Source of the DNA: Escherichia coli
GTDB taxonomy: Bacteria; Pseudomonadota; Gammaproteobacteria; Enterobacterales; Enterobacteriaceae
Direction: 5' to 3' (one strand)
Length of the DNA: 64,000 nt
Assembly (NCBI RefSeq): GCF_030013595.1
Contig: NZ_CP122768.1
The notes below the pieces were generated by a model. That model did not search any database, had not been told where the DNA came from, and saw only the letters and a list, made by a program, of their open reading frames with translations. This document shows positions 46,801 to 49,628 of the stretch, piece by piece. Position numbers and translations under genes: made by a program. The first letter of the stretch is position 1; each line of letters opens with the position of its first letter.

Positions 46801-46984
46801 ACCGGTATCCTGTTGATTTCGCTGAACCGGATCACACTAATCCGGTTTATCATTCAGGTAATATGGACGTGAAAAATGATGGAATGTCTGAATTACGGAC
46901 ATGATTGTTAAAGTGTAATGGAGTATGAAGTGAGTTTTTCCGAACGGGAACTAATGACATACTGCGGTTTCAGGAGATGAGAGG

Positions 46985-48115
46985 ATGACCGGACGTAAAA
47001 ACAAATGTGTCAGAAAAAATTGTAACAATCAGGTTTTCTCAGTAAAAATGGCAGTGGAGAAAAGACTGTGCAGAAAACATTATGAGAGGTTTTGTGAGCT
47101 CAAAAAAAGAAGAGAGCAAAATCCTGTTCACAGATTAAATGAAGCATTGCCAAGAAAGATAAAAGGACCAAAAAGTAAGAAAAAATTAGTAAAAGAAAGA
47201 GAAATCATTAACAGCAGAAAAAAACATAAACAGGAGCAGGGACCATCGCTGACTGAACTTAATAAAAAAGTTCGTGAGATACTGAAAACTCCTGCATGGA
47301 GAACGCTGGAAACGAGAATTCGAAGAAACGGAATCACATTTAAGTCAAAAGCAGAGTTAGATGCGCTTTCTGAACTTTATGCAATTTATTCATGGGTTTC
47401 ATATTGCAAACGGGGCGATAATTATTCTGTGTGGTTTTTGAATTGTCCGGATGTAAATATAAACCTTCATGTGTGCGAATGCCGGTCTTCTGAAAGCGAT
47501 TGTTATCTGCCATCTCGTTTTATTATTCTTCCAGCTCCATTAAGGCAAAAAGTAAAAAGAAAATACTCGGCTAATTCGTCTGGGGTACCAGGACATAATG
47601 ATTCAAAAAGTCTTTATAAGACAGTTTTGTCTGTTTGTGGTGGGAAAAGAGAAACCGAAATGTTCTTTTATTCATTGCCAGTAAAGACTAATCATCATCC
47701 TTACTGGATTAAAAGTGGTGTGGTTAAAAGATTCCCTCCTGTTTTTGGTTTGTTGTTTTATGAACAGGAAAGATTAACAGGAGGTGTTTTTCGTTATGTG
47801 TTGATAAGATTTTATAATACTTTTAAAGAGAATTTGTTTTTTGTTGAGATTGTATCGTGCTGTTTTCTTGTTGAGCTTTTTCATGATATTGATTCATTTT
47901 TTATAAATCAACGATTAAGTAAGCTGGAAAGTTTTATAGATAAGTGGAGGGAGGGTAAAGAAATCTGGATAAAAGTATATTTACAACTGATACATACTAT
48001 ATTGGGAATAACTGAAACAGAAAAACTCGTCAATCTATATAATTCATTTTTTACTGATAAAGTGGTTCTCTGGGATGAATCAGTAAAAAAAGTTAAGTGG
48101 ATTTATGAGAAATAG
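46985..48115 (+). CDS. Hypothetical basic Cys-rich protein in the variable cargo slot beside the island GTPase; function unknown
   Basis: 376-aa ORF in AT-rich DNA; Lys/Arg-rich N-terminus with four Cys (KCVRKNC...LCRKHYERFC) compatible with a zinc ribbon; no family recognised. Confidence 0.55.
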   Translation: MTGRKNKCVRKNCNNQVFSVKMAVEKRLCRKHYERFCELKKRREQNPVHRLNEALPRKIKGPKSKKKLVKEREIINSRKKHKQEQGPSLTELNKKVREILKTPAWRTLETRIRRNGITFKSKAELDALSELYAIYSWVSYCKRGDNYSVWFLNCPDVNINLHVCECRSSESDCYLPSRFIILPAPLRQKVKRKYSANSSGVPGHNDSKSLYKTVLSVCGGKRETEMFFYSLPVKTNHHPYWIKSGVVKRFPPVFGLLFYEQERLTGGVFRYVLIRFYNTFKENLFFVEIVSCCFLVELFHDIDSFFINQRLSKLESFIDKWREGKEIWIKVYLQLIHTILGITETEKLVNLYNSFFTDKVVLWDESVKKVKWIYEK

Positions 48116-49628
48116 TACCATTTAACTGAAAGCCACCATAACGTCTTTTTGACTACATTTATGATAATGCGTCTCATTTTGTTTTCGTTTTTTTGTTCAG
48201 GGAAATTTTCCGAACATCAGTGATAATGAGGGTTTTGTTGTTTTTGTTTCTGCAATGTTTGAGGACTGTTCCTGGAGACGATTCGTTGCTTGTGAGCAAG
48301 AGGTGGTCCGCTTTACTGGACAAGTTTTGCATTTGTTGAGTGGTGAAATGGAAGTAAAAAGAGCCCCTTTCTGGCAATGGTTGAAAAAGTCAGTAGCGTG
48401 TGACAGTAAAAGCTAACATAAAGTGATTATCGTATGATTATGACAATGACTTATAACTTTTATGAAAAGAACAACAGAAACTACGAAGCCATAGCAGATT
48501 CCTGAGACCATGTTTTCTGAGGTAGAGAAAATAATTCCAGAGTAAATCTGTTCTGTTTTTAGGACAGAAAACTCCATGCTGGCTGTAAAAGTGAAAAATT
48601 AACACCCAGTATGTATGGAAGTCTGAAGATGTTGAGAATGTCGGTATGATACTATATACACATATTTTACTAAGTATTTTTACTAAGCATTTCAGTAAGT
48701 GTTATACACGTATTTTCATAAACACTTGTAGAAGTGTTTTCGTTAAGCATTGCTATACACATCCAGTTTAGTAAATCTTTACGTTAACTAAATCAGTTTA
48801 ATGCTGCTGTAAAACCTTTCTGCTTCAGCAATCAATCTGCTATTCGATTTTACTGATGTTACGTTTAACCTTTCCTGAGATTTCGAGTTTTGAAGTTAGC
48901 ATGAGAAAAGTATCTTTACGCTAAATCAACCCGAACTTTCCTGAAGTAATCTGACGTTCTTTTCGATGTGCTTACGACGATTCTGTTAAACGACTTTCTG
49001 GATGTTTTGATAACAATCAGATTTAGGCATTAACGATTCCTGACGTTTTTCTTTTCCGTGTAAGGTCATTGTTTTCGTCATGAGGTTTCTTCTTGCATTG
49101 CGAAAGTGTGATGAACGGTTTTGGTGTTTTGATTCAGATGAAGTTTACGTTATCGATGGTTAATCGTTTTTATGGTGCGTAGTGAAACGTAACATTTTCG
49201 GGATGAGAAAATCGATTCTGATGGTGATGGGGATGATCGTGTTACGGCGTTATCTGTAAACAGGTTTTAAACGTGTCATTCGCATTCGTGATTTAGTTGT
49301 GTGATTAAGCTGTAGGTTTTGGCGTTGTTGTTGATTTGCATTGCCAGGAAGCGTTCTGGTTGCGTTTCTGGTGTTTTGTTCGAATGTTCTGTGGATCCTT
49401 TTCCCTTCAGGCTTTTCTCGTCGTCCATGTCGTTTTTAAATCCATTCATGCTGTTGTTGCGTGTTTTGCTGCTGTGTGCAGGATTATCTTTTCGTTCCGG
49501 GATGGTTTGTTCCGTTTCAATCACTCTTAATCAGAGAGTTGTAGCATTGCTCAATGCCGGATGCCGTAAAGTTTTACCGCGTTGATGAATGATGTGAAGT
49601 CAAGCCAAATCAACGGAGATCTCTCATC

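Follow-up and report, generated by a model that had tools for sequence, protein, structure and literature searches.

Is an AT-rich gene of no recognised family, lodged between the conserved genes of an integrative island, passing cargo or part of the island itself? We addressed this question in a 64,000-nucleotide (nt) stretch of Escherichia coli DNA (contig NZ_CP122768.1 of assembly GCF_030013595.1; hereafter the window), in which an open reading frame (ORF) at 46985..48115 (+) encodes a protein of 376 amino acids (aa), WP_000147748.1. We refer to this product, together with its allelic and superfamily homologues, as X. A first-pass annotation, made by reading the window without database searches, had placed the ORF between the island GTPase gene and a gene of the YagK/YfjJ family, a position which the ORF list and RefSeq bear out; it had regarded the site as a variable slot for cargo, and the protein as a candidate for defence or regulation. 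Our comparisons indicate that X is instead a fixed component of the island backbone and not swappable cargo.

X is a real gene under purifying selection. Comparison of the window gene with an allele whose protein is 80% identical (locus L014) gave a ratio of nonsynonymous to synonymous substitution rates (dN/dS) of 0.32 overall, and the main cluster of X sequences at 90% identity has 3400 members; because of this cluster and these rates, which fall to 0.04 in the N-terminal finger described below, we regard X as more than a chance ORF. By part, dN/dS was 0.04 for residues 1-50, 0.70 for the basic linker and 0.28-0.35 for the core, and the GTPase gene, which serves as the comparison value, gave 0.17. 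The largest cluster of truncated versions has about 90 members. The coding sequence, also supported by its homologues, opens with an ATG codon that has GGAG and GAGAGG directly 5' of it, and its product is a "hypothetical protein" in RefSeq genomes that are 100% identical across the region. Positions 44000-56000 of the window are essentially identical to E. coli 2009C-3133 (NZ_CP013025.1), in which the island adjoins yicL/nlpA with its CbtA arm toward the core genes. A full-length copy of the 1.6-kb X region (95-100% identity) occurs in 456 of 5426 complete E. coli genomes, and all ten full-coverage matches in a spread sample (95.8-100% identity) were annotated as hypothetical protein. Literature searches found no paper on the X protein, its accessions or its locus.

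Within E. coli, X is exchanged as part of a discrete cassette. Alignment by blastn to the islands L019, L020 and L018 placed breakpoints at 46877 and 48528, which delimit an allelic cassette at 46878..48527 consisting of X, 107 nt upstream and 412 nt downstream. This 1.65-kb cassette, with a G+C content (GC) of 35%, is replaced between otherwise near-identical islands, and the DNA inside it cannot be aligned by blastn. To its left, identity among islands is 96-98%; on the right, L019 retains 89% identity, and L018 and L020 retain 70-75%. In about 1340 further E. coli genomes, the match is confined to the opening 75-77 nt of the query (46801-46877, by the start of the GTPase gene). The 3' flank of the cassette holds a 53-aa ORF, which is not kept in L014, and yielded no significant RNA structure (z = -0.01).

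The genes that replace X at this site encode hypothetical proteins of 407, 310 or 320 aa, among others. They are 18-26% identical to X, and each one examined is a distant homologue of it. The 407-aa allele matches the family profile over its full length (hhalign probability 99.6%, E = 1.2e-23) and has both the finger and a C-terminal (I/L)YNS(C/F)F motif, and the 310-aa allele, which has no finger, matches the core (probability 95.6%, E = 1e-8). When searched with a profile built from the close family only (A2, hmmsearch), the other E. coli alleles scored 126, 30 and 28 bits. The allele at L027 is marginal, at 10.5 bits with the close profile and 21 bits with a broader one; it shares the W-x-NT, (I/V)P-x2-IR-x-KV and SLY motifs. 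Thus, the idea of a "variable slot" holds in that a cassette is exchanged, but a single superfamily fills the site in all islands examined, and the suggestion that it accepts unrelated cargo is not supported. Among the 5426 complete genomes, four allele classes were found in 456, 976, 742 and 43 genomes (about 2200 genome-matches), and the conserved leader of the GTPase gene was found at 2333 places in 1797 genomes. As the allele counts roughly cover these genomes and places, essentially every leader-bearing GTPase gene adjoins a superfamily member. Of the complete E. coli genomes, at least a third or so carry the island backbone to which the X superfamily belongs.

The position of X is also fixed across genera. 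In Klebsiella, Citrobacter, Atlantibacter and Salmonella, the equivalent site is occupied by relatives that are 30-36% identical to X, and among relatives with retrievable flanking DNA the position recurs in about 15 independent contexts from five genera, with 93-184 nt between X and the start of its divergent neighbour. The loci compared were L003-L006 (Klebsiella), L007-L009 and L012/L013 (Salmonella), L010 (metagenome), L014 (E. coli), L016/L017 (K. oxytoca) and L029-L031 (Atlantibacter, K. oxytoca and C. freundii). The GTPase gene adjoins X wherever context is available, except in L010, a short metagenome contig in which X diverges instead from the gene of a WYL-domain regulator, a gene that lies beside the GTPase gene in E. 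coli islands. X lies upstream of AlpA, YagK/YfjJ or both wherever the contig reaches far enough downstream. The complete K. oxytoca island gives the fullest view of this arrangement: from the integrase end, one arm runs through the integrase, methylase/HNH cargo, UCP030791, DUF7828, YagK, AlpA and X, and the other through the GTPase, DUF932, RadC, DUF987, CbeA/CbtA and helicase-PLD/Mrr cargo, so that X marks the point where the two conserved arms meet, with the obvious cargo at the ends. Conservation across islands had been named as a check in the first-pass annotation, and by that check the site is filled by superfamily members in E. coli and four other genera.

X diverges far faster than its surroundings. 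Within E. coli, the GTPases are 94-97% identical and the X alleles about 25% identical; across genera the corresponding values are about 50% and 30-36%. The window allele is closer to alleles of Klebsiella and Salmonella (32-36%) than to the other E. coli alleles, and the core motifs persist at 18-36% identity across genera. Base composition follows the locus in the same way. The X gene has a GC of 33.5% (27% at third codon positions), as against 53% in the GTPase gene and 48% across the whole window, and all long alleles have 33-36% GC beside GTPase genes of 53-60% GC, in every genus. The gene is AT-rich, as had been remarked, but low GC is therefore a conserved property of the locus and no mark of recent foreign acquisition. 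On the basis of its core motifs and its position divergent from the GTPase gene, X can be placed in an unnamed superfamily.

The X protein is basic (isoelectric point 9.75), with 32 Lys and Arg against 10 Asp and Glu in residues 1-100, and has 12 Cys residues, at positions 8, 13, 29, 37, 141, 154, 164, 166, 173, 218, 292 and 293. Its N-terminal module (residues ~5-45; 46997..47119, +) carries the motif C8-x4-C13-x15-C29-x2-H32-Y33 followed by a helix, and is delimited by invariant alignment columns, a duplication in Salmonella, high model confidence and its low dN/dS. C8, C13, C29 and H32 are invariant in 11 copies of the finger, and A23, R27, L28 and Y33 also belong to the invariant positions; C37 is kept in the closer subfamily only. 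Because C8, C13, C29 and H32, and not C37, are invariant across the superfamily, the metal ligands of the finger are likely to be a CCCH set. A basic N-terminus with four Cys residues had been noticed earlier, and both features are present (C8, C13, C29 and C37); the invariant ligand set, however, replaces C37 with a His. In the AlphaFold model, short strand residues flank C8 and C13, and C29 and H32 open a helix at residues 30-45, with a predicted local distance difference test score (pLDDT) of about 90. The predicted structure thus has the four invariant ligands and the knuckle-and-helix geometry of a treble-clef-like C2CH zinc finger. This is the most constrained part of X, nearly invariant among alleles that are 30% identical overall. 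It is duplicated in tandem in Salmonella relatives of 465 and 468 aa and missing from the short alleles of 310 and 320 aa, and therefore behaves as an independent module.

The finger is followed by a Lys/Arg-rich linker (residues ~46-90; 47120..47254, +), recognised by its composition, pLDDT, dN/dS and length variation. Residues 51-100 include 16 Lys and Arg, pLDDT is below 50 at residues 55-68, where the model suggests partial disorder, and the length of the linker differs among alleles. The remainder (residues ~91-376; 47255..48112, +) is a predicted, mostly alpha-helical core with two short beta hairpins, one within the helical part (~90-353) and the other C-terminal. It contains the superfamily motifs (A/E)W-x-NT, IILP-x2-LR-x-KV, SLY and PLF-x-L-x3-E-x2-R, and, in long-form alleles, LYNSFF. 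Residues conserved across the superfamily are W105, R114, Y135, P183, Y211, P252, R263, E288 and Y352-N353-x2-F356; these appear to be mostly structural and do not resemble a catalytic set. A first AlphaFold model, made from eight sequences, was poor (pLDDT 54), and a Foldseek search with it matched only the X family itself. When distant alleles were added, pLDDT rose to 80.5, with a predicted template modelling score of 0.69; this rise indicates that the distant alleles contribute real co-variation to the model.

Similarity searches connected X with no curated family, in line with the first-pass annotation, which had recognised none. In Pfam-A the best match was PX at E = 6, and none of the 14 alignment members reached E = 0.001; NCBIfam had no relevant match for X or its alleles; the best PHROGs matches (E = 0.03-0.1) were to families with no assigned function; and neither the full profile nor that of the finger matched any PDB sequence. 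The PADLOC check that had been proposed, run on X and five other alleles, returned no family from PADLOC-DB 2.0.0 at E values up to 1. Pfam, NCBIfam, PADLOC and the model revealed neither a catalytic nor an effector domain, and inspection showed no evident transmembrane segment. When single sequences were searched against sets of 5.8 billion and 1.84 billion proteins, only five full-length representatives at 50% identity clustering emerged; in the latter set, of cluster representatives, phmmer found only these five full-length relatives, at 27-37% identity to X. Word-indexed searches found relatives in Klebsiella, Citrobacter, Atlantibacter, Salmonella and Enterobacter, all "hypothetical", and profile searches added the 407-aa E. 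coli branch and Enterobacter branches, none of which carries a functional annotation. A locus search with the close family had matches in only three of 100,044 species-representative genomes. We found no relatives of X in phage records and no paralogue elsewhere in the window, and the sole match in plasmid records was a 62-kb circular record that holds the whole island and an integrase gene.

Foldseek found the fold of X (E = 1.7e-6 to 6.6e-4) in the AlphaFold database entries A0AAU7IMG3, A0A7W3D2Y5 and A0AAU6NM79. These carry the name "HNH endonuclease", which seems to be an automatic, unverified label. Fingers of the form Cys-x4-Cys...Cys-x2-His-Tyr are common at the N-termini of phage HNH endonucleases. 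The HNH models of Pfam and NCBIfam matched neither X nor any allele tested. The X superfamily and its evolutionary behaviour appear to be new, and the helical core has no counterpart among solved structures.

The alleles that have no finger differ from the others in a second respect. They always precede a convergent gene of 267-284 aa, with a 4-nt overlap at the stop codon; these partner genes lie at L018:8036-8845, L023:4065-4919 and L027:4131-4934, in other E. coli islands. The C-terminus of the partner resembles the ribbon-helix-helix proteins CopB/RepA2 (NCBIfam PRK13702, E = 7e-5) and RepC (RepC_IncLM, E = 0.002), and more weakly the Pfam family RepB-RCR_reg (E = 0.26). As the core is accompanied either by a finger in cis or by a ribbon-helix-helix-like partner gene, a putative DNA-binding module would be associated with it in both forms. 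Between two of the short alleles, identity is about 88% across residues 1-199 and falls to about 28% across residues 200-310, and their partner genes are 27% identical. In this mosaic the C-terminal half of X co-varies with the partner, which suggests that it is a specificity surface that co-evolves with the partner. The likeness to CopB/RepA2 (IncFII) and RepC (IncL/M) belongs to the C-terminus of the partner and not to X, and suggests a DNA-binding regulatory context for the locus. The window allele has no such partner, and tblastn of the adjoining gap found nothing; on the same result we rejected the idea that this gap without genes holds the remains of a partner gene of the kind seen with other alleles.

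The non-coding DNA on either side of the cassette is itself conserved. On the GTPase side, the intergenic part at 46801..46877 is common to islands with different X alleles. It contains an inverted repeat with a CCGG core (AACCGGAT-N7-ATCCGGTT), and the core recurs in Klebsiella and Salmonella with arms that are partly compensatory. Covariation in this leader hairpin is weak (five pairs, one of them compensatory). The same part contains an element, GTAATATGG (in the opposite orientation CCATATTAC), that resembles a -10 element whichever strand is read. The form conserved across genera is CTATATTAC/GTAATATAG, and ATATTAC (GTAATAT on the other strand) is fully conserved. On these features, 46801-46877 may have promoter function. 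On the other side, 1.5 kb without long ORFs separates the X stop codon from the YagK/YfjJ gene, and the part of it outside the cassette (48528..49628) is a conserved AT-rich stretch. At ~48640-48770 it has iterated short motifs (TTTACTAAGTATTT, TTTACTAAGCATTT and, three times, TATACAC) of iteron-like appearance, and it may be an origin or a control region for the Gp2-like protein. Rfam had nothing credible in 44000-52000. RefSeq annotates a 57-aa hypothetical protein, WP_012139175.1, at 49276-49449 (-) within the conserved gap, inside an 82-aa ORF with a GTG start.

What, then, might a fixed but hypervariable backbone protein do? Our preferred reading, which we advance tentatively and rate below an even chance, is that X is a nucleic-acid-binding protein with a regulatory or specificity role, encoded by the backbone of integrative islands of the GTPase/DUF932/antirestriction/RadC/CbtA type. 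The grounds for a regulator are the fixed divergent position, the constrained modular finger, the presence of a DNA-binding module in cis or in an adjacent gene, the divergent C-terminal half and the lack of an effector or defence domain. Under this reading, the CCCH finger and the Lys/Arg-rich linker would tether X to DNA; the most plausible target would be either the control region that X shares with the divergent GTPase operon or the conserved non-coding DNA that precedes the Gp2-like YagK gene. Recognition of a partner or signal would fall to the hypervariable helical core, its C-terminal half above all, and the fast diversification of this core could give each island lineage its own specificity, by analogy with heteroimmune phage repressors and with Stl of the Staphylococcus aureus pathogenicity islands (SaPI). 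That X binds zinc and DNA, which site it would target and that it acts as a regulator are all inferences. As to the earlier choice between "defence or regulatory", we infer that regulatory is the better of the two guesses.

Several observations weigh against this reading. Homology and fold searches tie X to no known regulator, and the finger is without a Pfam or PDB match. The island already encodes regulators of the WYL-domain and AlpA types. A sigma-70 scan found no promoter on the + strand for X. As would be expected of a master repressor similar to Stl or CI, X lies head-to-head with the GTPase operon, within the element backbone; however, Pfam detects no helix-turn-helix (HTH) domain in it, and there are no cognate operator repeats that co-vary with it. 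We found no convincing operator repeats specific to alleles around X. A 10-nt repeat, TTTTCCGAAC, flanks the X gene and is not fully kept in the 80%-identical allele. The promoter-proximal 76 nt are constant among different alleles, so that the co-variation of regulator and operator seen in phage immunity is absent. The ribbon-helix-helix similarity of the partner gene is below curated cut-offs (22.7 bits against 87), and the partner, being convergent, is not co-transcribed with the short alleles. Finally, a defence or counter-defence protein would be just as likely to show such extreme allele diversity at a fixed site. Nor is there support for an "immunity-region" model with a joint exchange of regulator and operator, as the promoter-proximal DNA is constant; the sole flanking repeat, TTTTCCGAAC, is short and imperfectly conserved.

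The alternative of a single-gene anti-phage defence protein, with a core that senses a phage component, a basic finger region that binds nucleic acid of phage or host and so blocks infection, and a diversity driven by an arms race, appears doubtful to us. It would account for hyperdivergent alleles at a fixed site between conserved flanks and for allele lineages that cross species, and it fits with X being intact in hundreds of genomes, with the Mrr-like and TIR genes among the nearby island cargo, and with the AbpAB and RnlAB systems carried by the yfjJ-to-GTPase region of CP4-57 in K-12. Defence hotspots, however, usually hold unrelated systems, and here one superfamily is found in essentially every instance; the strongest constraint falls on the finger and not on a catalytic core; neither an effector domain (nuclease, NADase, membrane or ATPase) nor a conserved set of residues of catalytic appearance was recognised; and phage records hold no relatives of X. 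The defence role that had been proposed thus finds no positive support, as no allele matches PADLOC, no effector domain is present and the cargo of CP4-57 shows no similarity to X. A related proposal, which we hold to be unlikely, is that the X superfamily consists of hypervariable sensors, whose core recognises a component of a phage, a plasmid or a rival island and whose finger or ribbon-helix-helix partner gives a response at the level of DNA. The output could be island induction, exclusion of related islands or abortive defence, with alleles kept across genera by balancing or diversifying selection.

Two further functions would link X to its neighbours on either side. X might be an accessory DNA-binding protein of island replication or mobilisation that joins the Gp2-like YagK/YfjJ protein in acting on an origin within the conserved non-coding stretch. 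X indeed lies directly upstream of the conserved gene-free stretch with its iterated motifs (48640-48770), which leads to the inovirus Gp2/REP-family gene yagK; the partner genes that accompany short alleles show a likeness to CopB/RepA2 and RepC, which regulate plasmid replication; and a 62-kb circular record holds the whole island. We nevertheless consider this quite unlikely: an origin-binding protein is expected to co-vary with its origin, yet the stretch remains 89% identical where X is replaced, and in Klebsiella the long non-coding stretch is missing and AlpA lies between X and YagK. It is equally hard to credit, and we think distinctly improbable, that X is a factor for establishment or counter-defence which works with the antirestriction, DUF932 and RadC genes upon entry into a cell, its diversification being driven by variable host targets. 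The operon with which X lies head-to-head includes antirestriction (ArdB-like), DUF932 and RadC/JAB genes, a set that reportedly resembles the anti-defence genes of conjugative elements treated in PMC5512222, and the variability of X is consistent with a protein in conflict. X is transcribed away from this operon, however, resembles none of the known anti-defence proteins represented in Pfam or PHROGs, and is essentially absent from plasmids, where the one record is island-like. There is very little to recommend the remaining alternative, that X is a decaying or functionless orphan ORF silenced by H-NS and diverging under relaxed constraint. The gene is very AT-rich and has no detected + strand promoter, neighbouring island genes are often pseudogenes, and its dN/dS of 0.32 exceeds the 0.17 of the GTPase gene; but this ratio is well below 1 and reaches 0.04 in the finger, motifs persist at 18-36% identity across genera, the 3400-member main cluster compares with about 90 members in the largest truncated cluster, all ten full-coverage sampled matches are annotated as hypothetical protein, and model pLDDT rose from 54 to 80.5 with distant alleles.

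The genes around X complete the picture of the island. The GTPase gene (YfjP/YkfA/YeeP family, 294 aa) lies at 45916..46800 (-), divergent from X with 184 nt between them. Downstream of it, a YfjR-like regulator with WYL and HTH domains (45033-45713) is intact in the window; in strain MDR_56, the X gene of which is identical to that of the window, the regulator gene has an internal stop. The YagK/YfjJ gene (inovirus Gp2 / REP_ORF2-G2P family; 49629..50359, +) is represented by two overlapping ORFs, as a 1-nt deletion relative to NZ_CP013025.1 splits it into the frames 49629..49940 and 49865..50359; in NZ_CP013025.1 it is a single intact coding sequence of 243 aa. The variable cargo zone of the island is the region beyond YagK, and not the X site. 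In the window this region holds a 292-aa "restriction endonuclease" (RefSeq annotation; 50687-51565), a paralogue of the H-NS family (~53329-53769) and a MobI(A/C) gene (~62636-63022), and the corresponding region of MDR_56 has a TIR-domain gene instead. In the matching strain, the final kilobase of the window takes in the start of a type I restriction-modification system, and ~12 kb past the window's end there is a Tn21-like multidrug-resistance region. The 62-kb circular record (L022; CP057032.1, pRHB40-C01_2) is described as a "non-mobilizable plasmid" and contains the whole island backbone: an integrase, the genes from DUF4942 through the GTPase, X at 99.7% identity, YagK, an Mrr-like gene and an H-NS paralogue. 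It also has F4 fimbrial genes, and it shows no replicon or relaxase typing. The record could stem from excision of the island as a circle or from faulty assembly.

Islands of the GTPase/DUF932/antirestriction/RadC/CbtA type are among the commonest mobile elements of E. coli, Klebsiella and Salmonella, and carry virulence, resistance and defence cargo, which in the window island includes a type I restriction-modification system. X is a concrete candidate for a specificity or control function of these islands, and its allele classes, of which there are at least four, form a natural allele series. If X were a true defence or exclusion protein, it would represent a new family with an unmatched fold. 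More generally, the locus corrects the assumption that an AT-rich gene between backbone genes is cargo: it need not be.

The known systems with which X invites comparison are the CP4-57 island of K-12 and the master repressors of phages and phage-like islands. The first-pass annotation had stated, accurately, that CP4-57 carries rnlAB and yfjK/yfjL at the equivalent place; in K-12 these genes lie between yfjJ and yfjP, and the full cargo of that interval is AbpAB (YfjL/YfjK), YfjM and RnlAB. CP4-57 belongs to a comparable island family and carries this cargo at a roughly comparable place beside the island GTPase gene, but its yfjJ and yfjP are co-directional, unlike the arrangement here, in which the X/AlpA/YagK arm diverges from the GTPase arm. 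A tblastn search with X and its alleles against CP4-57 DNA, including AbpA, AbpB, RnlA and RnlB, gave no match with E below 0.1. YfjH and YfjI, considered as possible relatives of X, were ruled out by hhalign (probabilities 0.05% and 12%).

SaPI Stl and lambdoid CI are divergent master repressors of integrated mobile elements. X differs from them in that its putative DNA-binding module is a CCCH finger, with no similarity to either in sequence or fold, and in that the operon divergent from it is no obvious excision or replication operon. The analogy lies in organisation and in evolution. Like Stl and CI, X is encoded head-to-head with a conserved operon and would combine a small DNA-binding module with a helical domain that follows it, and, like them, it diverges strongly between closely related elements while the flanking genes remain near-identical.

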